Positions 1 through 63,361 are shown, numbered from the stretch's first letter. The stretch: DNA of 64,000 nucleotides from Longilinea sp. (GCA_039810245.1 JBDHWQ010000023.1:603-64602), one strand, 5' to 3'. Numbers and translations are program-made. The notes: generated by a model from the sequence alone, not told the origin.

Positions 1-762
1 CGGGATCGAGTTAATCTGGGGAACCGGGCTGGGCGGAGCCTGTCCGGAAGGTTATCAACCATTGACAATGGCAAAAGGGAACTTGTCGGCGTGTCATAGT
101 CAAAGGGACGATGGGACAGATTTGTGGAGTTTGGAAGCCCAAACTTTAGGAAATACCGGCTTCGGAGGCTTTGCATATACAAACGACACAACAGAGAAAA
201 GCCGGGCTTTGGTTCTTCAAGTGGTTTCGACTCTCAGTTTCCCATGAGGCCCGTTTCAGACAACCCCAGGAACAAGACTGAATAGCCAGGTTGTACTGCC
301 GCCCAACGAGGCGTGCGGCCTTCCACCCGTCTGGATTGCCTGTACCTTTTAGGGCGCAAGTTGCGCGAGGACGGCAACCAGGCGGGGATTCTGGCGTAAG
401 GGTAAAATCCTCAAAGAGGATACTTCTCTTTTCCTCAACATTCCCACCGGAACATCCAGTGGGTCTTAGGAAAGTCGATTTCAAGCCCGCGAATCTCGTT
501 TCGCATGCGCGCGTTTTCGGCGCCGATCTGCACCACATCGGCATATTCGAACCCGCCCGCACGATGTCGTATAGCTCGCAAAAGAGCAGGGTGGTCGCGC
601 CCGGGCCGCGAAAGCGCGGCAGGACGCCTATCCCGTCGGCGTTGAGGCATTTTGCACGCCGCAACTCGGCGAGCAAATCGGCTCAGCCCAACAGAGCATT
701 TTTCAACAGGACGCTATGATGAATTCCACTGATATCACGTTCACTCTTCTTATTCATAGAGG

Positions 763-3171: not shown

Positions 3172-3338
3172 TATAAGGCAACCACTTCACGCTGTGGCAC
3201 GCCTGTCGTTATTTTTTTGCCTGATCTTAGCTGCCTGACAGAGCCTGACCTGCGTGCGTTAAACCGTTTCATCGATACAGCGGTGGTAGACGCGATGGAA
3301 CAAAATGAGACTGGTTTTAGCCAGGAAGGAGAAATATC

Positions 3339-4094
3339 ATGGCTGGAAAATTGATCATACTTGTCATTGTTCTGCTGCTGGCTGCCGGCTGCATCCCACA
3401 GGCGCCTGCCACACCGATAACGCTAACTACGCCGGCAGCGACGCCAACCGTGGAAATGCCGGTGGTAGAAGTAAAAACAGCCGAAGCGACATTCACACCG
3501 GCGCCGACCCCGGCCACCGGGTTCGACAGTAACGAATGCGACAACCCGTTTTATCCGGTCAGTGACGAGGCAACCTGGACGTATGCCATTGCTGCCGGGG
3601 GTAATGCGGAATACATAATGAGTGTGGACGAAAAAGGGGCTTTTACACTCAACATTCAGGGGGATGAAAGCACGTTTACCATCGACGGCGATTGCACGAA
3701 TGAGGGGATCGTGCTCATGAACACCGCTGGCGCAGAGACAACTGTTTCCAGTTCGGATGGAAGCGCGGTCGTCTCGACCATCGATGTAAAAGGCGTCACG
3801 CTGCCGAAGGATATCAAAATAAATGACCAGTGGTCGCAGACGATCAATGTAACTACCGAGGGCAATAAATCTGAGATCTTTACACAGTATACAGCGTTGG
3901 GGTTTGAGAATATCACCGTGCCGGCAGGTAACTTTTACGCGCTCAAAATAGAGCAGTCCGGTTATGTGGAGATCTTCGGGCAGAAGGTGAATATGCACGG
4001 CTATCAATGGTTCGCAGAAGGCGTTGGGACGGTCAAATCTGAGATGGATGGAACGCCCGCAATCGAACTGGTTACGTATGATATTCCGGATTAG
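3339..4094 (+). CDS. secreted lipoprotein, unknown function
   Basis: Signal peptide with lipobox 'LLAAGC', followed by a Thr/Pro-rich linker. No other motif recognised. Confidence 0.6.
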   Translation: MAGKLIILVIVLLLAAGCIPQAPATPITLTTPAATPTVEMPVVEVKTAEATFTPAPTPATGFDSNECDNPFYPVSDEATWTYAIAAGGNAEYIMSVDEKGAFTLNIQGDESTFTIDGDCTNEGIVLMNTAGAETTVSSSDGSAVVSTIDVKGVTLPKDIKINDQWSQTINVTTEGNKSEIFTQYTALGFENITVPAGNFYALKIEQSGYVEIFGQKVNMHGYQWFAEGVGTVKSEMDGTPAIELVTYDIPD

Positions 4095-5583: not shown

Positions 5584-6318
5584 CTAGCTGCTCCCTGCCA
5601 TCCTTTTCGATTTTGCCTGCGCGGCAGCCCGGCTGATCAGAACCCTGTACACCGTCAAAAACAACAGGCTCGCGCCGCTGAACCAATACAGGTAATAGGA
5701 CCAGGCTGTGCCAGTGTCGGTACCACTCATTAATCCGTGAATCAACGCGCCAAGAAAACAGGCATAACTGACAAAATGGATCAGCCGCCAGGCTTTCTTC
5801 CCGATGCGCTTGCGCACATAAAAACTGAGATTGACGATAACCCAGGCGTAAAAAACCAGTTGGCCGATCCCTACCCAGATTGGGCGGTAATTCTGCCCGA
5901 GAAAGGGTACTAACACTTGCGCGACCGTATATTCCATATACCGGTCACCGGTCAGGATCAGGGCATGGAATAGGGCCAAACCCGTCCCGAACAGGCCGGT
6001 ATACTGGTGGATTTCATAGGCCGGTGGGATACCTGGCCAGATTTGTGCCATCTTGTTGGTGATGGTTACCCCCATAGCCATCGAAAGCCACAGCACCCAG
6101 TAGGCTGCGAAGGCGCTGCCGCGAGATAGGAACCAGTAAACCTTCGGTTGGCTCCCGGCGGTGGAAAACGCTAGCCCCGGCAGCCATAACGGCATGGTGT
6201 TGATGGCAAATAGAACCGCGGCCAGTACCACCAGAACCATCAGGAGGAGATCCTGCGACGGCATCACCTCAGGCATTTGCTCATGAATTTCTTCAGCAGG
6301 CGAGGATTTAATCGACAT
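5584..6318 (-). CDS. ferric-reductase-like (YedZ/MsrQ-type) transmembrane di-heme protein
   Basis: Track ORF 5584-6390 trimmed to the ATG at 6318 ('MSIKSS'). Six hydrophobic helices with conserved His residues ('FHALILTGD', 'LIHFVSYACFLGALIHG'). Last gene of the ApbE operon. The start is uncertain. Confidence 0.55.
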   Translation of the reverse strand: MSIKSSPAEEIHEQMPEVMPSQDLLLMVLVVLAAVLFAINTMPLWLPGLAFSTAGSQPKVYWFLSRGSAFAAYWVLWLSMAMGVTITNKMAQIWPGIPPAYEIHQYTGLFGTGLALFHALILTGDRYMEYTVAQVLVPFLGQNYRPIWVGIGQLVFYAWVIVNLSFYVRKRIGKKAWRLIHFVSYACFLGALIHGLMSGTDTGTAWSYYLYWFSGASLLFLTVYRVLISRAAAQAKSKRMAGSS

Positions 6319-7264
6319 TTTTACCCCATAATTCATTTTCGAAGCCCTGGCTGTAAAAGACCCGGCCATCCTGCAAGGCCAGCAGCCCACAAATCTGCGC
6401 CTGGCTTTCCAGCCAGGTCAGCCCATCGCGGCTGCCTAAGATTAAAACCGCTTTCGCGGCTGCTTCGGCTCGCAGCGCATCCGGCGCTATGATGGTCACG
6501 CTCATGAGGTCGGTTTGAGCTGGTTCGCCGCTGCGCGGATCGATGATATGGTGCTGCCAGGAGTTGTTACGACGCCAGCGCCGGTAATCGATCCCAGAGG
6601 TGGCCACACCGCACGCTCGCAGCGCCAGCTTTCCCAGTGACTCCTGCATTTCCAGCGGGTCGGCAATGGCTACCGGCCAGGGGCTGCCATCCGCCCGGCT
6701 GCCGCTGACTGCGATATCGCCCCCGGCGTCCACCAGAGCCGGGCCGAATGCGCTCAGCCGCCGCGCGGCCTGCCAGGCAGCCCAGCCTTTGCCTACCCCG
6801 CCCAGGTCGAGCCGGACACCTTCCGGCAGCCGAACGGCTTGGCGCTTTTCATCGAGTGCGATATCTCGCCAGGCATGTGGAAAAACCGGTAGCCGCTCCC
6901 ATGTATCAGGTGGCAGCCTGTTCTTCAGCCCGGATGGTTCGGCGCCTACAAGCTCGAAGCTGCGATCGTAGCCGGTACGCTCCAAAGCATTTAAGATACA
7001 CGGGTTCACCAGGCCGCCGGTCGAGCGGGCCGCTGCCAGCGCGCCCTGGAGCACTTCCCAAAGGATAGAGCTTACCGGATGGAATGCACCGGCAGATGCA
7101 TTGAGCTCGTTCAGCTCGCTGTCCGGCCGGAAGCGGCTGAGTACCTGCTCCCATTCTTCAAAATCGGCCGGGGTCTGAGCCAGTGCTCTGGTTGCTGGCA
7201 ATCCATCGTCGTCCAGGAAGGCCGCCATCTGGCAGCCCATGGCTCGAAATTCGATCTTCTGCAT
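6308..7264 (-). CDS. apbE: FAD:protein FMN transferase ApbE
   Basis: Motifs 'FRAMGCQM', 'SELNELNASAG', 'DLGGVGKGWAA' and 'GVATSGIDYRRW...HHIIDPRSGEP'. Its start overlaps the stop of the upstream ORF (TAATG at 7262-7266). Confidence 0.85.
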   Translation of the reverse strand: MQKIEFRAMGCQMAAFLDDDGLPATRALAQTPADFEEWEQVLSRFRPDSELNELNASAGAFHPVSSILWEVLQGALAAARSTGGLVNPCILNALERTGYDRSFELVGAEPSGLKNRLPPDTWERLPVFPHAWRDIALDEKRQAVRLPEGVRLDLGGVGKGWAAWQAARRLSAFGPALVDAGGDIAVSGSRADGSPWPVAIADPLEMQESLGKLALRACGVATSGIDYRRWRRNNSWQHHIIDPRSGEPAQTDLMSVTIIAPDALRAEAAAKAVLILGSRDGLTWLESQAQICGLLALQDGRVFYSQGFENELWGKNVD

Positions 7265-7722
7265 TATTTCGATGACCTGGTGGTGGTGACTGGTGCGGAA
7301 CTGCTGTCACCGCTCTGGCTGCTTTCTCCACCGGCGGTGATTACCGGCTGGACGATGATCGGTTTGACTTTTTGTATGATCTGCGGTGTGGGGATCGACA
7401 CCGAGCGCAGTGGGAGTGATTGCCCGGCCGGTTGCGCCTCACTTGCACTGACCGGGAGCTGGTTGGCCTGATCTTCATTCAGGCTGATTAACGGCACCAG
7501 GGTGGGCAGCGGCGGAAAACCTTGTGCCACATTGGCTGGTTGCTGGGGTGGCAGGCTCAGTACGGCAGCCGGGGCTGCTTTTTCTGCCTGGTAGATATCC
7601 TGAGAATACAGGTTCCAACAACCAATAATGAGTGCCGCACTCAGCGCCCCAATGAATAGCTTCGTATCCAGGAACCTGGCCTGTGTGCGCTTGTTTCCCT
7701 GCGTTGGCTTATTCGGCACCAT
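7264..7722 (-). CDS. membrane-anchored Pro/Ser-rich protein, unknown function
   Basis: One N-terminal TM helix ('LFIGALSAALIIGCWNL') followed by a low-complexity Pro/Gln/Ser region. Translationally coupled to apbE. Confidence 0.45.
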   Translation of the reverse strand: MVPNKPTQGNKRTQARFLDTKLFIGALSAALIIGCWNLYSQDIYQAEKAAPAAVLSLPPQQPANVAQGFPPLPTLVPLISLNEDQANQLPVSASEAQPAGQSLPLRSVSIPTPQIIQKVKPIIVQPVITAGGESSQSGDSSSAPVTTTRSSK

Positions 7723-7733
7723 GCTGTTTTCTC

Positions 7734-8540
7734 CTAATCGTCTTCATGGTCATCATGATCTTCAGGTTCGCTCCAATGGTGGCTGCTTTCGCTGCTTGAC
7801 GTGTCACTCTGCGCTGACACCTGCCGGACAGCGCTTTGAACATTCTTCTGCACAAAGATGATCTGGCCGGTCATGTCCAGGTAAGCCATCAACCCGTCCT
7901 TAAAGATGATCCGGTACAGCGGTGCGCCCCGAAATGTAATTTGATCCACCTGAAGGATGTCTTTTTCCTTTAGATATTCCGCCGCAACCTGCGCGGCTTT
8001 GTCCGCGCTGATTTGCTGCGGAATCGTGCCATTAAACAAAACTTCAGCGCTTTGGGCATCAACGTACACGGAGCCATTGTCGAATACGATTTCATATGCA
8101 GCCTTTCCCTGGAAATTGACCAGATCGGGCTTTTTCAGCGCTACCTTGCCAGGATCTACAGCCCTGTGCGCAATTTCATTCGCCTGGTCCGCGGAGATGG
8201 CTGTGCTTGCGTCAGTTTGGGCTGCCCCCTGCTGACCTTGGAGTTGCGTTATATGCTTTTGCATCGCCTGCAAATCGGTATTCGCTTTCTCGATCTGCTG
8301 GTTGGCTTGCTGGAGCATTTGTTGATATTCAGCTTCACGCTGCTGGTACAGTAGAACTGCTTGCGCGGGGTCCATCTGGCTGACTGGCTGCGCCGCTGCT
8401 GCCAGCGCGGCAGAGTCTTGAGCGGCGGCTGGCTGGCTGACATTCTTGTTCATCAGGACGGTGGCAGTGATTCCGCCGATCACGATCAGAATCAACGCTG
8501 TGATGAAAACCGATAGCATGGTGACCTTAGACAGTTTCAT
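7734..8540 (-). CDS. PepSY-domain membrane-anchored protein
   Basis: N-terminal TM anchor, a Gln-rich coiled-coil-like region, two PepSY-like blocks ('ISADQANEIAHRAV...AAYEIVFDNGSVYVDAQSAEV' and 'ISADKAAQVAAEYL...APLYRIIFKDGLMAYLDMTGQI'), and an acidic His/Asp tail. Confidence 0.65.
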   Translation of the reverse strand: MKLSKVTMLSVFITALILIVIGGITATVLMNKNVSQPAAAQDSAALAAAAQPVSQMDPAQAVLLYQQREAEYQQMLQQANQQIEKANTDLQAMQKHITQLQGQQGAAQTDASTAISADQANEIAHRAVDPGKVALKKPDLVNFQGKAAYEIVFDNGSVYVDAQSAEVLFNGTIPQQISADKAAQVAAEYLKEKDILQVDQITFRGAPLYRIIFKDGLMAYLDMTGQIIFVQKNVQSAVRQVSAQSDTSSSESSHHWSEPEDHDDHEDD

Positions 8541-9021
8541 TTTTTAGCTCCTTGGAATACCGGTGGTGGTTTGGTGCTAAGAAGGACCCCAATACACACC
8601 AAAGGTTATTTCGGTTAATTCATACTGATTTAGTTGGATATATTGCGGAAAAGTTACGGTAGTTTATAATATTGGGCGCTGGCCCATAGCAAACCTATGG
8701 CTTTCCCAGGCTATGCAGAGTATTGCGTGGAGACCGTACCTGCAATACACTTGTCGAGATGAAGGATTGGTCCGCCGCTTTTTCTTAAGGCATGGCGCAC
8801 AATGAGCCCTATTATGGGGATTTGAATTTGAAAGCGCCGGCCTGGTAGCCCTGACGCCCTGCTTCCGGGGTTAAGTATGCCTGCCAGATCTGTCAGCAGC
8901 ACTGCGCCGCGGCAGGGCACTGGATGCTTTTTAACAAAACACGCGTAACTTTTCCGTCCTTCCCGCAACCTGATAAATAGATACGTTTTATCGGACTTTT
9001 ACCAGGCCCAGGGCGGCAAGC

Positions 9022-9645
9022 ATGCGCAATCAGCTATCCCCGGTCAGTTGTACAGGAGTAGTCAGTATTCAGATTAATCCGGCCAAAGATATCCTTACGG
9101 ATGCCTCCGATCGCCTGCTCGAACGCGCGCTTTCGCTGGACACGCAGGCTTTGGCGCGTCTCCACGACCGGTGCTACCCGGTCGTGTATCGTTACGTGCG
9201 CTACCGGTTAGAGGATGAACAGCTGGTCGAAGATATCAGCTCCGAGGTCTTTTTGCGCCTGTTGGATCATATCCACCGTCACAAAGGTGAAATTCGCGAC
9301 CTGCGCGCCTGGCTGTTGGGCACCGCCTCCAACCTGATCAACGAGCACCTGCGCCAGAAATATCGCAGGCGAACAGAAAACCTGACCGATCATGAGACCT
9401 TATCCAGTAATGAAGATGTCCATCACGCAGCCGAACAATCGGACCGCCGTAAGGCTGTCCGTCAGGCTATGCACCACTTGACGAACGAGCAGCAACACGT
9501 CCTGGCGTTGCGTTTCAGCCAGGATCTCTCCATCGAGGAAACGGCGCGTTTGATGAATAAGACCACCGGAGCGGTGAAAGTCTTGCAGTTCCGCGCATTG
9601 GCCGCCATCCGAAAAATAATTAACCGCTACGAGGGGGAAGAATGA
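9022..9645 (+). CDS. ECF-type RNA polymerase sigma-70 family factor
   Basis: Region 2 ('YPVVYRYVRYRLEDEQLVEDISSEVFLRLL') and region 4 HTH ('LSIEETARLMNKTTGAVKVLQFRAL'). Its stop overlaps the next start (ATGA at 9642-9645). Confidence 0.85.
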   Translation: MRNQLSPVSCTGVVSIQINPAKDILTDASDRLLERALSLDTQALARLHDRCYPVVYRYVRYRLEDEQLVEDISSEVFLRLLDHIHRHKGEIRDLRAWLLGTASNLINEHLRQKYRRRTENLTDHETLSSNEDVHHAAEQSDRRKAVRQAMHHLTNEQQHVLALRFSQDLSIEETARLMNKTTGAVKVLQFRALAAIRKIINRYEGEE

Positions 9646-56890: not shown

Positions 56891-56964
56891 TCCTCGATAG
56901 CTCAATTCGGCAGAGCGGGCGGCTGTTAACCGCTAGGTTCCAGGTTCGAGTCCTGGTCGAGGAG
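56891..56964 (+). tRNA. tRNA-Asn (anticodon GTT)
   Basis: Cloverleaf folded by hand. Acceptor TCCTCGA/TCGAGGA, D-arm GCTC/GAGC, anticodon stem GGCGG/CCGCT with loop CTGTTAA, T-arm CCAGG-TTCGAGT-CCTGG, discriminator G. CCA is not encoded. Confidence 0.9.
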
Positions 56965-56979
56965 CCTACATCTTCTGCA

Positions 56980-57013
56980 GCCTCGGGCAACGCCGGCCCG
57001 AGGCGATTTTTTT
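56980..57013 (+). terminator. rho-independent terminator after tRNA-Asn
   Basis: GCCTCGGGC-AACGCCG-GCCCGAGGC forms a 9-bp stem followed by GATTTTTTT. Confidence 0.75.
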
Positions 57014-57102
57014 AAGGTTCAGGTTCCACGCCCCCATTGAGGGGATTGTATTCGCGTCCTGGTCGAGGAGCCTACATCTTCCGCAGCCTCGGGCAACGCC
57101 GG
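57014..57102 (+). repeat. degenerate second copy of the tRNA-Asn 3' half plus trailer
   Basis: AAGGTTCAGGTTCCACG, then a ~24-nt insertion, then GTCCTGGTCGAGGAGCCTACATCTTCCGCAGCCTCGGGCAACGCCGG. The last part matches 56950-56996 with one substitution. Confidence 0.8.
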
Positions 57103-57413
57103 TTTGGGACGCCCTCTTTTTAAGATACGAAGCTAGCTTTCCAGGCGAAAAACTGTTGAAATTGAGCAAATTGACTTGCGTTATCTTGATCTGTTGCCCG
57201 TTCTGACTTCTTACCTATTAAAGGATTGCCGGCCTAAGGGACTGCGGAATTATGGCGAACTGTCTGCAGAAGATGCCGATCAGATCGATCCAATCATCAC
57301 CCATCTTGCCACTATGTCCATTGAACTGACTCGTCTTTTTCCTGCTGGACCGGATGACCGTTCGTCCGACAAAAATAAGTGAGGGTTCGCCATATTTTTG
57401 TTACCTTCTTCGC

Positions 57414-57533
57414 TTGACGCCTGCCAAGTAAGGCTTAGAATTAGAGAAGCGATGAGGCTCGCTAGGAAAGTATCGAACCGCCGACCACGGCTGATAGCTT
57501 CTGTCTGTGACCCCACAAGACAGAGGCTTTTTT
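57414..57533 (+). ncRNA. candidate leader / small RNA element E1 (promoter, 5' hairpin, CTGATAGC box, intrinsic terminator) upstream of eno
   Basis: TTGACG at 57414-57419, 16 nt, TAGAAT at 57436-57441. Hairpin AGCGA-TGAGGC-TCGCT at 57448-57463. CTGATAGC at 57491-57498. Terminator stem AGCTTCTGTCT/AGACAGAGGCT followed by TTTTTT, ending at 57533. A related inverted copy lies at 62281-62389. Confidence 0.4.
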
Positions 57534-57557
57534 AATACCTGCCCTCATTCTCGTTGA

Positions 57558-58862
<1,305 letters not shown>

Positions 58863-58884
58863 ACGATCCAAAAACGAAGGAAAG

Positions 58885-58913
58885 AGGGCCGGGCAAAGTG
58901 GCCCGGCCCTTTC
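58885..58913 (+). terminator. possible terminator hairpin after eno
   Basis: AGGGCCGGGC-AAAGTG-GCCCGGCCCT forms a 10-bp stem, but only a short T tract (TTT) follows. Confidence 0.4.
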
Positions 58914-58930
58914 ATAATAGGATTGCGCGT

Positions 58931-59278
58931 ATGAACACCACACTGATTTTGGTGCGGCACGGGCAGACGGATTGGAACCGGGTTGAGCGTTCCCGCGGCC
59001 GGTATGATATATCGCTCAATTCGACCGGCCTCGAACAGGCTCGCCGGATCGCGCAGCGATTGGCGAAGCGCTGGAATCCGGCGGCCATTTATTCCAGCCC
59101 GTTAAGCCGGGCTATTCAAACCGCGGATGCGATTGCTCTCGCCTGTAATCAAAAGGTAATGCCCGAAGCGGGATTAACGGACATCGATTATGGCGCATGG
59201 CAGGGTATGTCACCTATGGAATACCGTGTGATAAACATCTTCGCCAAAACTGGTCTGCAGGGGTTCGGCCTCGAATAA
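58931..59278 (+). pseudogene. 3'-truncated histidine phosphatase (GpmB/CobC-like) gene
   Basis: 'MNTTLILVRHGQTDWN' carries the catalytic RHG motif, and 'IYSSPLSRAIQTA' follows. Family-like sequence stops near 'DIDYGAWQGMSP' (about aa 95 of an expected ~200). The ORF tail overlaps the 3' end of the convergent low-GC MutS-like gene. Confidence 0.65.
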
Positions 59279-60697
59279 CTTGAAGGTTCGCTTTCCACCG
59301 GATTTCCTCTCCGCGCGCAGGAAAATGGTATTTCCTATGCCTCGTTCGTAAAACGAATGGGCAAGCTCATATTGGTGGGTGACAAAAAACACCTTAATTT
59401 TCCGTTCCAGCAGCGCATTTGTAATTTGCCTGCCGATCTCCGAGCCTTCCCTTTCGTTGGTGGCCGCGAAAGATTCATTGAACAGCACCATCGAATTGGG
59501 GGTAACATGGTCGGCAATATCGCTCATCCGGCTGAGCTCTTCGTCCAGTTTCCCGCTTTTCATGGTGACATCTTCTTCACGCTTATAGTGGGTAAAGATT
59601 CCCGTGCTAAGATTCGCGCTGAAGTCGCTGGCCGGAACGTACATTCCACACTGCATCATCAGTTGGGCCAGGCCGATACTTCGCAAAAATGTCGATTTTC
59701 CCCCCTGGTTGGCTCCGGTGATCATCACAACGTCTTTATGATCTGCGTTCACGTCATTGCCGACGACCTTCTGTTTCATGGTCAACGCCAGGCAGACGTC
59801 GTATAACCCATGGAAAGCATGCCTTCGTTCTGCTGCCGGCGCTGGCGAGGGGAAACAGATGGGACTTTCCCACTGCGCGAGCTGCTCGTGCAGATTCAGA
59901 CATCCGACATAAAATGCCAGCTCGATCTGCAGCATTTTGAAGAAGTTGTCGATGTGATCCGCCGACTGCGCAAGCGCGTTGGCAACCAGGTTTATTCCAG
60001 TGTCCTTTAATTTCCCCAAAGCCCGTGCACCGGATTCGTCTCGGTCACTGATATAGAAGAAATATGTAGGATTCTTCCGATTAAGAATGTCCTTCCACCA
60101 TTTCAAATTTTTTGGCCGGCGAAGGATGTAGTTCGTTCCTTCATTCCCTTGCCCTAAATCAGCGCTGATCAGCACGCCATCCCGAAACTTGAGCTCCTTC
60201 AAGTGATTTTCTACAATGGCAAAATAGTCGTCATCCAGCTCTTTTTGAATCATCGTAAAAAATCTGCGGAAACCTTCCGACTCAAATTCACGGGAATATG
60301 TGTCCGCTATCCCTTTTAGCCTACGCAGCAACCCCACAAACATGTTCATCAACTCAAGCGCGCCACTGAGGACGCCGCTTGGATAATACGTAAATATTCC
60401 CATCCAATGCTGCCGTTTATTTTCCATGGCCTCAATCGGGATTTGGAAGATCTCTCGAATGACAGAAGGGAAACGCAAGCAGTCCTTAAGAATATTTTGC
60501 CGGTAAAGGATGGTCTCAATCTCATCCGAGCCTGACAGGACGGCCTTCCAGGCAATATCCATTAGAAAGCGGTCGCCGCGCGCCATCGCGTTGAACAACG
60601 TATTTAATTCCAGGTCCTGGACCAGGGCTTTTTCGTTAACGGGTAAAGGGTGTTCCAGATCAAAGTCCTGGTCGCGAAACATCAGATATGCTTTCAT
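59210..60697 (-). CDS. MutS-family ABC-type ATPase, core + domain V only (495 aa), partner B
   Basis: Walker A is 'ITGANQGGKSTFLRSIG', Walker B-like is 'MVLFNESFAATNEREG', and 'FFVTHQYELA' follows. No mismatch-binding N-terminal domain and no Smr or nuclease C-terminus. Low GC. Its start overlaps the stop of the upstream partner (ATGA at 60694-60697). Confidence 0.8.
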   Translation of the reverse strand: MKAYLMFRDQDFDLEHPLPVNEKALVQDLELNTLFNAMARGDRFLMDIAWKAVLSGSDEIETILYRQNILKDCLRFPSVIREIFQIPIEAMENKRQHWMGIFTYYPSGVLSGALELMNMFVGLLRRLKGIADTYSREFESEGFRRFFTMIQKELDDDYFAIVENHLKELKFRDGVLISADLGQGNEGTNYILRRPKNLKWWKDILNRKNPTYFFYISDRDESGARALGKLKDTGINLVANALAQSADHIDNFFKMLQIELAFYVGCLNLHEQLAQWESPICFPSPAPAAERRHAFHGLYDVCLALTMKQKVVGNDVNADHKDVVMITGANQGGKSTFLRSIGLAQLMMQCGMYVPASDFSANLSTGIFTHYKREEDVTMKSGKLDEELSRMSDIADHVTPNSMVLFNESFAATNEREGSEIGRQITNALLERKIKVFFVTHQYELAHSFYERGIGNTIFLRAERKSGGKRTFKLFEAEPLQTSFGEDVYHTVFHR

Positions 60698-62268
60698 CCC
60701 TGAATACGCTCCTTTAATTGGCTGTACGTAAGGTAATACTTCTCGGCAATACTGATCGCATATGCCAGTCCATCCGATGGTCTCCGGACAATCTTGAAGG
60801 TTCGCAAGGCTGGATTTTCGGGCACAATGGTACTGACCATGCTGACCGTTTTTTCACTCAGAGAAGACAGCTCATCGATAAACGTCACGCATATACACAG
60901 TAGATCCAATGCAATGATCTGCTCCATGATCTTCTTGCTCAGAAAGACCGCATCTTTCAACGTTGTGGAGGTGAAGATTTCGTTCATGATAATGATGCTC
61001 TCTGGCGTTGCATGATTCAATATTTCATGAATCCGCACCAGGTCATCGTGCAGTTTCCCGCGTAAATTTTTGATCTTTTCTTCTTTTTCAAAATGGGTAA
61101 AGAGTTGATCAAACAGAAAAAGCTGGGCTTGCCGGCCTGGGACTGGTAAACCTAAACATGCCAGGTAGTGGAGCTGCCCGAACATGCGGGCGAAGGTGGT
61201 CTTTCCACCTTGATTTGGGCCTGAAATGACCAGGATGCGCTCACTCCCCTTCAAGGTAAAATCATTGCAGACCACTGGCGCACCTTCGGCGACCAGCTTA
61301 TTGGCTAAAGCAATGTCGAAGCCGTCCACTTCGAAAATTTCTTTCGTTTGACCGGAAACTGCCGGGTAACAGAATTTCAGGCCGGCCTGTTTAATTCTTC
61401 GGATGTACTCCAGGTACGCAATATAAAACTGGATCTCACGATCAAAAATACGAATCGTCTCATCCATGAAATGTTGGTGCTTCTCACAATAGGCATCCAG
61501 TGTGGAAAAAACTTCTGGGTACAATCTGGCAACGCAGTCCAGAATTTGCGCTTCTACATGATTGAACCCCGAACCCTTGATATTTTTGACTTTGTAATCC
61601 TTTACAGCCCCCTGTTTGAACTTTTCAAAGGTTCGCTCAACCTCTTCGCTGTAATCACTCTCCAATTCATATTTTCGAACCCCAACGCGGTTCCCTTTAA
61701 TGATGATGGCATAATGAATCGTTGATTGGTCGACCTTGCATTTCGCGGTCTCTTGTTCAAGCGACTGGAAATTCTCCGCATTCACATAGCGGTCCAGGTA
61801 TTCTCGAAAAGCAAGCAAACCACGCGATTTCAGCGCAGCCCGCGACAAATCCCGTCCCAGGTTCCTAATCGCTTCGCAATAAATAACAGCGGCTTCCAAA
61901 AACCAGCCGGCTTTATGATAGTGATAATCAAGCTTGCCGGCCATGCCAAGATACCGGCGGACAATCACCATTTTTTGTGCAAATATATCGATGCGCTTCA
62001 GTACTTCGTCGCTTTCTAAATCCTGCGCGACCTCCTGCCGGTACTGGATGGTTTCAACATTATGGAAAGGCAAATAGAAAAATGGTTTCAGGTTATATTC
62101 TTGCCGGCTCGCGCAGACGGCATCGACGACCTGATCCAAGTTTAGATCAACGAAGAAAGGTGGCATTTCTGCCGCTTGGATTTCCTCATAATTTGGAATG
62201 CGCTCAAAGAGGATGCTTTGGAAGCGCATATTGTTTTTCATTCCGCTCGCAATTTCCTTTAAGTTCAT
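60694..62268 (-). CDS. MutS-family ABC-type ATPase, core + domain V only (524 aa), partner A
   Basis: Walker A is 'ISGPNQGGKTTFARMFG', Walker B-like is 'IIIMNEIFTSTTLKD', and 'ICVTFIDELS' follows. No domain I and no Smr. Low GC. A GAGGG RBS lies directly after the E2 terminator. Confidence 0.8.
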   Translation of the reverse strand: MNLKEIASGMKNNMRFQSILFERIPNYEEIQAAEMPPFFVDLNLDQVVDAVCASRQEYNLKPFFYLPFHNVETIQYRQEVAQDLESDEVLKRIDIFAQKMVIVRRYLGMAGKLDYHYHKAGWFLEAAVIYCEAIRNLGRDLSRAALKSRGLLAFREYLDRYVNAENFQSLEQETAKCKVDQSTIHYAIIIKGNRVGVRKYELESDYSEEVERTFEKFKQGAVKDYKVKNIKGSGFNHVEAQILDCVARLYPEVFSTLDAYCEKHQHFMDETIRIFDREIQFYIAYLEYIRRIKQAGLKFCYPAVSGQTKEIFEVDGFDIALANKLVAEGAPVVCNDFTLKGSERILVISGPNQGGKTTFARMFGQLHYLACLGLPVPGRQAQLFLFDQLFTHFEKEEKIKNLRGKLHDDLVRIHEILNHATPESIIIMNEIFTSTTLKDAVFLSKKIMEQIIALDLLCICVTFIDELSSLSEKTVSMVSTIVPENPALRTFKIVRRPSDGLAYAISIAEKYYLTYSQLKERIQG

Positions 62269-62280
62269 CGGCCCTCACTC

Positions 62281-62389
62281 AAAAACAAAAAAGCCTCTAC
62301 TGGAGCGTGCGCTCAGTAGAGGCTATCAGTCGGGTGACAGTTTTGGCGAGCCTCATCGCCATGGATCTATTCGATTAATTAGAATTATA
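62281..62389 (-). ncRNA. candidate leader / small RNA element E2 upstream of the MutS-like operon (inverted relative of E1)
   Basis: Read on the minus strand: TATAAT (62389-62384), hairpin GGCGA-TGAGGC-TCGCC (62360-62345), CTGATAGC (62329-62322), terminator stem AGCCTCTACTG/CAGTAGAGGCT followed by TTTTTTGTTTTT. The ATG at 62268 is 12 nt downstream. Confidence 0.4.
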
Positions 62390-62521
62390 CTCGAAAACTT
62401 TGCCGATGCACTTTTATTGACATAGGTTTCTGTGTACAACGCACGCTCTGGTTTGGTTTTGTTTTCGGAACCGGTGTCCTACTTTTCTCGATCTGTCTAC
62501 CCTTCGAAGATTTTCCGCAAT

Positions 62522-62588
62522 CCGCCAGGTTCCAGGTTCGAGTCCTGGTCGAGGAGCCTACATCTTCCTGTGCCCCAGACAACGCCGG
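62522..62588 (+). repeat. direct repeat of the tRNA-Asn 3' half plus trailer (att-like)
   Basis: 62527-62567 is identical to 56935-56975 (41 nt, AGGTTCCAGGTTCGAGTCCTGGTCGAGGAGCCTACATCTTC). Looser similarity extends to ...AACGCCGG. Confidence 0.85.
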
Positions 62589-62609
62589 TCCGATGATAGA
62601 CTGGCGAAA

Positions 62610-62700
62610 ACCTAACCCCCCGGCCCCCTTCCCGACCCGGGAAGGGGGAGCGGAAAGCGTTGATGGTTGCGAAACTGCCTATGCTCCGCGGGGGTTAGGT
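62610..62700. repeat. nested GC-rich palindromic structure adjacent to the att-like repeat
   Basis: The outer 11-bp stem is ACCTAACCCCC (62610-62620) / GGGGGTTAGGT (62690-62700). The inner 10-bp hairpin is CCCCCTTCCC (62624-62633) / GGGAAGGGGG (62639-62648). Confidence 0.55.
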
Positions 62701-62884
62701 CTGCTGGCACGGTACGAAACGAATTACCAAACGAAAAGAGGCTTTTAGGAGCCTATGAGAATAAGCAGCCGGGGGCGCTTGCAATGGAGCCATTTCCGGC
62801 GCGTGCTGGCAGCATGCCTGTGGCGCCATCCACACCCGATCCTGGCGTATAATATCCCTAATCCCACCCCCAAGGACTCCCCCC

Positions 62885-63361
62885 ATGGCTGACACCTACC
62901 CCACCGATCCTACCCCCGACGAGCGCATCCTGGCGGCGGCGGCGCACGCCTCGATCCTCATCCCTATGATGGGCTTCTTCGCCCCGCTGATCATCTGGAT
63001 TTTGCAGAAGGACAAATCGCGCTTTGTGGCTTTCCAATCGCTGCAGGCGCTCGCCTACCAGTTCGCGCTGCTGGTGGGGTACATGCTTGGGATGCTGTGC
63101 TACGGGGTATCCTTCTTCCTGCCGTTCCTGTTCATGATCCCGCTCTCAGGCCAGCACACCAGCTCGCAGGTGGATAGCATCCTAGGGCTGGGCTTCCTGC
63201 TGCCCTTCGTCATGCTGCTGATCGTCGGCCTGGCCGCGCTGGCCGCCATTGTCTATGGCATCGTCGCGGCGGTGAACGCCTTTCAGGGCCGGCCATTCCG
63301 CTACTGGATCGTCGGCGCGCAGGTGGAGCGCTTTACCCGCCCGCAGCCGGCGGCCGCCTGA
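62885..63361 (+). CDS. DUF4870-like small membrane protein
   Basis: 'ERILAAAAHASILIPMMGFFAPLIIWILQKDKSRFVAFQSLQALAYQF' and about 4 TM helices. TATAAT lies at about 62849. Confidence 0.65.
   Translation: MADTYPTDPTPDERILAAAAHASILIPMMGFFAPLIIWILQKDKSRFVAFQSLQALAYQFALLVGYMLGMLCYGVSFFLPFLFMIPLSGQHTSSQVDSILGLGFLLPFVMLLIVGLAALAAIVYGIVAAVNAFQGRPFRYWIVGAQVERFTRPQPAAA

Follow-up and report, generated by a model that had tools for sequence, protein, structure and literature searches.

The window analysed here is a stretch of 64,000 nucleotides from Longilinea sp. (GCA_039810245.1 JBDHWQ010000023.1:603-64602), and it contains two related elements in inverted orientation: E1, on the plus strand upstream of eno, and E2, on the minus strand upstream of a gene encoding a MutS-like protein. 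The question raised by this locus is which kind of element the two represent. A first-pass annotation of the sequence had described the same layout for both, with a -10 box, a short hairpin, a variable linker, a conserved box and a terminator stem followed by six T, and had proposed a shared cis-regulatory leader, a pair of small RNAs or the diverged inverted ends of one mobile element, with no match to a known RNA family. Scripted motif searches on both strands found each of the listed features, including the -10 boxes, at the place given for it. E1 and E2 are not a new RNA family: they belong to an already known system, and the genes that they precede are already published for that family.

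Family assignment and structure of the two leaders

The whole 64-kb window was scanned with the 4227 families of Rfam 15 at gathering thresholds. Three matches were found: a tRNA-Asn at 56891-56964 and two full-length matches to RF01734 (fluoride riboswitch, crcB motif), which cover positions 1-64 of the 64 model positions, with E-values for the whole window of about 1.4e-6 in E1 and about 1e-6 in E2. Both scores exceed the RF01734 gathering score, 34 bits, by only about 3 bits; since both lie above it, the absence of a known family, as first stated, does not hold. E1 and E2 are very probably two independent copies of the fluoride riboswitch, each of which would act as a transcriptional ON switch. 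The two leaders show the following features:

57414..57441 (+): E1 promoter, with the -35 box TTGACG at 57414-57419, a 16-nt spacer and the -10 box TAGAAT at 57436-57441
57439..57510 (+): E1 fluoride riboswitch aptamer, Rfam RF01734, 36.9 bits, model positions 1-64
57448-51 with 57460-63 (+): E1 P1, AGCG paired with CGCU (structural parse)
57464-79 (+): E1 J1/3 joiner, 16 nt, 10 nt above the other parsed members
57480-83 with 57488-91 (+): E1 P3, GCCG paired with CGGC, loop ACCA (structural parse)
57492-95, 57496-501 and 57502 (+): E1 3' tail, formed by UGAU, the pseudoknot 3' strand AGCUUC and U, respectively
57496..57533 (+): E1 intrinsic terminator, 57496-57509 paired with 57514-57528, 14 pairs and one bulge
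62384..62389 (-): E2 -10 box TATAAT, read from the sequence
62310..62369 (-): E2 fluoride riboswitch aptamer, Rfam RF01734, 37.3 bits, model positions 1-64
62360-57 with 62348-45 (-): E2 P1, GGCG paired with CGCC (structural parse), with the same loop as E1
62354-49 (-): E2 pseudoknot 5' strand, GAGGCU
AAAACU (-): E2 J1/3 joiner
62338-36 with 62331-29 (-): E2 P3, GUC paired with GAC, loop ACCC (structural parse)
62328-25, 62324-19 and 62318 (-): E2 3' tail, formed by UGAU, the pseudoknot 3' strand AGCCUC and U, respectively
62281..62324 (-): E2 intrinsic terminator, stem 62324-62292, 14 pairs and one bulge

The E1 promoter matches the consensus at 10 of 12 positions and is the top sigma-70-like match within the 5.4 kb scanned, and transcription is predicted to start at about 57448, the first base of P1. 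In E2, no clear -35 box is found upstream of TATAAT. The 14-mer shared by both elements, GCGATGAGGCTCGC, was located by script motif search at 57449-57462 (+) in E1 and lies at 62359-62346 (-) in E2; these are its only two exact copies in the window, and no further copy appears at up to 2 mismatches. This identical core, whose covarying closing pair had already been pointed out, corresponds to P1 (AGCG/CGCU vs GGCG/CGCC) and its conserved loop: in both elements P1 has 4 bp and closes an 8-nt loop, AUGAGGCU, which starts with the AUG of the conserved GAUG and which, in E1, contains the pseudoknot 5' strand GAGGCU at 57454-59. The linker that follows does differ in length between the elements, as described, but it is not featureless: it is composed of J1/3 and P3, which had been overlooked, and the short P3 is present in both elements between the A-rich joiner and UGAU. 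The box CTGATAGCYTCT, which appears as CTGATAGCTTCT at 57491-57502 (+) in E1 and as CTGATAGCCTCT at 62329-62318 (-) in E2, is the conserved 3' tail of the aptamer. The alternative pairing suggested between GAGGCT and AGCYTC turns out to be the 6-bp pseudoknot of the family, which competes with the terminator. In E2 (GAGGCU/AGCCUC) its six pairs are Watson-Crick, and in E1 (GAGGCU/AGCUUC) one of the six is a G-U wobble; with respect to the Rfam consensus (GGAGUU/AACUCC), three pairs of GAGGCU/AGCYUC differ, all of them in a compensatory way. The Thermotoga petrophila aptamer of crystal structure 4ENC (a structure cited in PMC8752731) presumably carries the same pseudoknot variant as E2, GAUGAGGC...CUGAUGGCCUCUAC.

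Related leaders were collected using the 524-aa MutS-like protein as query, which gave 12 loci from genome contigs: two are MAGs of Anaerolineaceae (L002 and L003, with 82% and 77% protein identity, respectively), and the others belong to Deltaproteobacteria, Alphaproteobacteria, Campylobacterales, Bacteroidales, Vulcanimicrobiota, Mesoaciditoga and further groups. These 12 loci show 12 RF01734 matches above threshold and further full-length ones just below it. In an alignment of 13 aptamers from the window and the related loci, the cells of P1 and the pseudoknot hold a standard pair in 117 of 117 cases, and five of the nine pairs change on both sides: two of the four P1 pairs and three of the five tested pseudoknot pairs. 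None of 500 column shuffles reached the observed pairing and covariation score, and in the control in which the partner is slid by 1-3 columns pairing falls to 43-56%. The linchpin nucleotides, A57494 and U57502 in E1 and A62326 and U62318 in E2, are present and occupy columns that are invariant in the 13 aligned members; the base after GAU is A in E1 and E2, compared with G in the Rfam consensus, and is A in eight of these 13.

A total of 18 members, from the window and the related loci, were parsed structurally, and each of them shows four of four P1 pairs and six of six pseudoknot pairs, with five different pseudoknot sequence pairs among them and an invariant U after the pseudoknot. In 16 of the 18, P3 is present and covaries (for example, GCCC/GGGC, GUCA/UGAC and GCU/AGC), and the remaining two are sub-threshold leaders not parsed for P3. 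In the leaders of L002 and L003, promoter boxes, aptamer and terminator stems are conserved and the divergence is in the terminator loops and flanks: comparison of the orthologous leaders shows the promoter boxes of E1 in both eno leaders, and the -10 box of E2 is conserved in both orthologues with diverged flanking sequence.

The J1/3 joiner of E1 contains a 10-nt insertion (57464-57473, AGGAAAGUAU and similar) which is common to the eno-type riboswitches of three Anaerolineaceae genomes: the window (36.9 bits), L002 (8913-8984 (-), 34.5 bits) and L003 (8994-9065 (-), 33.8 bits). Since this insertion brings the Rfam score down close to the threshold, the eno leader of L003 (33.8 vs 34) would be missed by default annotation, a modest point on annotation sensitivity. 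At the same site, L011 has a joiner of 40 nt, and most members have one of 5-8 nt.

Predicted switch and alternative readings

The terminator stem and the run of six T previously described are present in both elements, and folding gives 14 pairs with one bulge in each. A simple terminator scan listed neither terminator, probably owing to their bulged stems, and both are clear on folding. The E1 hairpin folded alone gives -20 kcal/mol (z = -5.5 vs shuffled sequence), and the fold of the whole E1 leader has z = -3.2; the 89-nt fold of the E2 leader gives -33.6 kcal/mol (z = -4.2). In E1, the T6 is at 57528-57533 and the ATG of eno at 57582, 48 nt downstream; in E2, the terminator tail is composed of U6 (62292-62287), a G and a U5 ending at 62281, and the sequence GAGGG (62276-62272) is between this end and the ATG at 62268. 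Both spacings agree with those first reported.

In both elements, the pseudoknot 3' strand (57496-57501 in E1; 62324-62319 in E2) constitutes the first six bases of the terminator 5' arm. Keeping the pseudoknot strands out of the fold makes the best nested structure 8.4 kcal/mol less stable in E1 and 12.6 kcal/mol less stable in E2, and only an upper stub of the terminator, away from the U-run, is left. This overlap and the full-length RF01734 matches give substance to the earlier suggestion of a riboswitch expression platform in a shared cis-regulatory leader.

An overlap with terminators is frequent in the crcB motif, and increased expression in the presence of the ligand was predicted from it (Weinberg et al., 2010; PMC2864571). 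For the fluoride riboswitch family, a Mg2+-fluoride cluster has been described. In the B. cereus crcB riboswitch, fluoride locks a Mg2+-folded pseudoknotted state through the A40-U48 linchpin and disrupts the intrinsic terminator (PMC8752731); the linchpin is a ligand-dependent reverse-Hoogsteen A-U pair between the A in GAU and the U after the pseudoknot.

By analogy with this published behaviour of the family, E1 and E2 would bind fluoride and allow read-through in the following way. Transcription would begin just 3' of the -10 box, and the nascent RNA would fold into P1, with its loop AUGAGGCU, and the short P3 hairpin. With fluoride, held in the Mg2+-fluoride cluster, GAGGCU of the P1 loop would pair with AGCYUC of the tail in a 6-bp pseudoknot, capped in the fluoride-bound state by the conserved A...U pair. 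Since the terminator 5' arm has these six tail bases at its base, the locked pseudoknot would block the formation of the full terminator stem at the U-run, and the RNA polymerase would read into eno (E1) or into the MutS-like pair (E2). Without fluoride, the terminator would form and transcription would stop after about 85 nt. We take A40 and U48 of the B. cereus element to be 57494 and 57502 in E1 and 62326 and 62318 in E2, a putative equivalence of our own which combines the B. cereus numbering with the statements on U45/C46 and A40-U48 in PMC8752731.

A drift of E1 and E2 away from the fluoride riboswitch, towards degenerate constitutive terminators or variants for another ligand, is very improbable. 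Such a drift would account for scores near the gathering score (36.9 and 37.3 vs 34, and 33.8 in the eno leader of L003) and for the J1/3 insertion and the pseudoknot G-U wobble of E1; however, both elements retain all helices, GAUG, UGAU and the U that follows the pseudoknot intact, the gene context is exactly the fluoride regulon, and the E1-type insertion is kept in three genomes, which points to selection rather than decay. To our knowledge, no altered-specificity variant of the fluoride riboswitch family has been described.

Slightly less probable still is that the terminated transcripts of about 85 nt are functional trans-acting small RNAs, a role compatible with riboswitch function. Each element should release, without ligand, a short stable terminated RNA, and some riboswitch-terminated RNAs act in trans in other bacteria, but what is conserved across phyla are only the aptamer positions. 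Moreover, each element is located directly before a gene known as a cis-regulated target and published as such for the riboswitch, which argues against the pair of small RNAs initially proposed.

The third initial proposal, in which a MITE or IS carrying eno and the mutS-like genes has E1 and E2 as its diverged terminal inverted repeats, was rejected and has only a minimal probability. Their inverted orientation, their separation of about 4.9 kb and the identical 14-mer fit such ends, but the similarity is confined to riboswitch-conserved positions and the window contains two copies only in its 64 kb. Between E1 and E2 there is no transposase (the region encodes eno, a His_Phos fragment and two MutS_V proteins), and no target-site duplication was found. 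In other genomes, from unrelated phyla, members of the family are single, tandem or divergent, and the repeats found on either side of the module, outside E1 and E2, are direct and correspond to the tRNA-Asn 3' end.

Equally minimal is the probability of leader-peptide attenuators, in which the AUG of GAUG opens an ORF of 27 aa in E1 (MRLARK...) and of 19 aa in E2 (MRLAKT...), both of which cross the CTGATAGC box in the same frame, given a 12-nt difference in linker length: this candidate was rejected since no Shine-Dalgarno sequence precedes the AUG, the ORF is broken after only 6 aa in the eno leader of L003, its length and sequence vary freely in the family, and the conservation is fully explained by RNA pairing.

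Controlled genes and flanking tRNA-Asn repeats

Read as fluoride riboswitches, E1 and E2 would control three genes:

57582..58862 (+): eno, encoding an enolase of 426 aa, with Pfam Enolase_N and Enolase_C and TIGR01060 at 658 bits
60694..62268 (-): MutS-like protein A, 524 aa, Pfam MutS_V only
59210..60697 (-): MutS-like protein B, 495 aa, MutS domain V ATPase only

The gene predicted to be controlled by E1 is eno, which shows an AGGAGG ribosome-binding site 7 nt upstream of its ATG. Enolase is inhibited by fluoride and is often found in fluoride-riboswitch operons (PMC11139923), and the eno gene of E. cloacae FRM, which a fluoride riboswitch controls, shows 176-fold induction (PMC5533749). 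A 10-bp perfect GC-rich palindromic hairpin (58885-58910, AGGGCCGGGC-AAAGTG-GCCCGGCCCT) is located 23 nt past the eno stop codon and is probably the eno terminator, with a weak U-run. Directly 3' of eno, an ORF of 115 aa (58931-59278 (+)) matches positions 1-92 of the 194 of Pfam His_Phos_1 and extends into the last part of the convergent MutS-like gene; given this short length, partial match and position, it is probably a truncated remnant. A three-frame translation of 62380-63000, beyond the mutS cassette, showed nothing similar to the missing C-terminal half of the histidine phosphatase, and the ORF at the corresponding position of L002 encodes an unrelated HEAT/zinc-ribbon protein. Full-length genes of the histidine-phosphatase family in fluoride-riboswitch operons are gpmA in E. 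cloacae FRM (PMC5533749) and the gene at 1539-2156 of L045, on a B. cenocepacia plasmid.

In tblastn searches of the 64-kb window with the CrcB of L003 and an E. coli CrcB sequence, crcB was not found (nothing at E < 1). L003 shows a third fluoride riboswitch at 3743-3806 (-), sub-threshold with 28.1 bits and with P1 and the pseudoknot intact, which precedes a crcB gene (3302-3718 (-), PF02537) divergent from the MutS-like operon. The homology between the window and L003 ends at 62392, and the crcB gene of L003 is absent from the window.

The first gene predicted to be controlled by E2 encodes MutS-like protein A. Pfam detected no mismatch-binding domain and no Smr domain in this protein, its NCBIfam scores are far under the MutS1 and MutS2 cut-offs, and its PDB sequence matches are confined to residues about 295-519, the ATPase region. 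Proteins A and B are paralogues, with 27% identity over the ATPase region. With a 4-nt overlap between the stop of A and the start of B, both genes are probably co-transcribed. An association with mutS was noted when the crcB motif was first described, with the motif in mutS 5' UTRs (PMC2864571), and no open-access paper was found that explains the function of the MutS-like pair in the fluoride response.

An RF01734 match is directly upstream of the MutS-like homologue in L002, L003, L007, L012 and L010, and L009 has a sub-threshold one (32.7 bits). Further riboswitches near MutS-like genes are located at 7247-7308 in L007, 3514-3574 in L010 and 3665-3725 in L009, and several such riboswitches precede genes similar to NADH dehydrogenase subunit 1 (hyfC-like, formate hydrogenlyase). 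In L008, a Bacteroidales MAG, the riboswitch at 216-277 (+) precedes an ORF (373-2181) encoding a dynamin-family GTPase. MutS-like homologues are also found on 46 plasmids, 21 of them predicted to be conjugative, with 50-56% identity for the ten best records listed; their hosts include Klebsiella, Citrobacter, Enterobacter, Rhodococcus and Burkholderia. The Burkholderia cenocepacia conjugative plasmid L045 contains three RF01734 riboswitches, which precede, in turn, a hypothetical gene and a histidine phosphatase, a CLC channel, and the MutS-like pair, the latter at 6016-9050. The MutS-like pair thus appears repeatedly under predicted fluoride control, across phyla and on conjugative plasmids, and this locus is a further clean example.

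The window, L002 and L003 have in common a module of about 5 kb (57396-62398) which extends from the promoter of E1 to that of E2 and has different flanks in each genome; the segments homologous to L002 and L003 are 57396-58877 and 59217-62398. In the window, the tRNA-Asn gene is at 56891-56966, and its 3' part with the downstream flank is present as direct repeats at 56930-57001, 57036-57107 and 62522-62593. A 26-mer is exact in the three copies, with none expected by chance, copies 1 and 3 are identical over a 41-nt core, and the similarity continues weakly past this core. Copies 2 and 3 enclose 5.5 kb with exactly the two riboswitch operons, and the GC content is 50.7% between the repeats, 58.4% in the left flank and 63.1% in the right flank. 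An ORF of 68 aa (57176-57382 (+)) with no Pfam match follows the second tRNA repeat and precedes the E1 promoter, outside the segment common to L002 and L003.

From this arrangement, the two riboswitch operons can tentatively be regarded as a compact, horizontally mobile fluoride-response islet, although we consider this reading somewhat doubtful. The pattern may fit an integrase-less element that undergoes site-specific recombination at tRNA-Asn and is mobilised in trans; alternatively, the repeats are decayed tandem tRNA copies. No integrase is visible. The right-hand junction (empty site) had no exact match in metagenome contigs, and with the neighbouring DsbA-like protein as query only distant relatives were found, with at most 55% identity and no tRNA nearby. 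L002 and L003 contain neither the tRNA-Asn nor the repeat. If the islet is real, spare regulated copies of fluoride-sensitive enzymes and a pair of MutS-like ATPases would travel as one unit.

Comparison with known fluoride riboswitch systems

E1, E2 and their orthologues in L002 and L003 are routine additions to a family known since 2010-2012, and their value is mostly one of annotation; the possibility that the module is a small mobile islet at a tRNA gene adds a modest point. Compared with the family as described by RF01734 (Weinberg et al., 2010, PMC2864571; Baker et al., 2012, Science, as cited in PMC11139923), both elements show the same P1, P3, pseudoknot, GAUG, UGAU, U after the pseudoknot, overlap with the terminator and downstream genes, and differ in nothing essential: the pseudoknot sequence is changed and compensated, and J1/3 of E1 is 10 nt longer than in the other parsed members. 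They resemble the B. cereus crcB archetype in that the aptamer meets the terminator at the pseudoknot 3' strand and the linchpin U, and the ligand would block the terminator in the same way; unlike the archetype, which controls crcB, E1 and E2 precede eno and the MutS-like pair. A similar gene arrangement is that of E. cloacae FRM (PMC5533749), where a riboswitch-controlled eno is followed by a phosphoglycerate-mutase/histidine-phosphatase gene, as eno is followed by the His_Phos_1 ORF in the window, and where eno and its riboswitch are on a horizontally acquired island. With respect to that strain, the window is without ppaC, uspA and crcB, its His_Phos_1 ORF is shortened, and it contains an additional riboswitch operon with the MutS-like genes.
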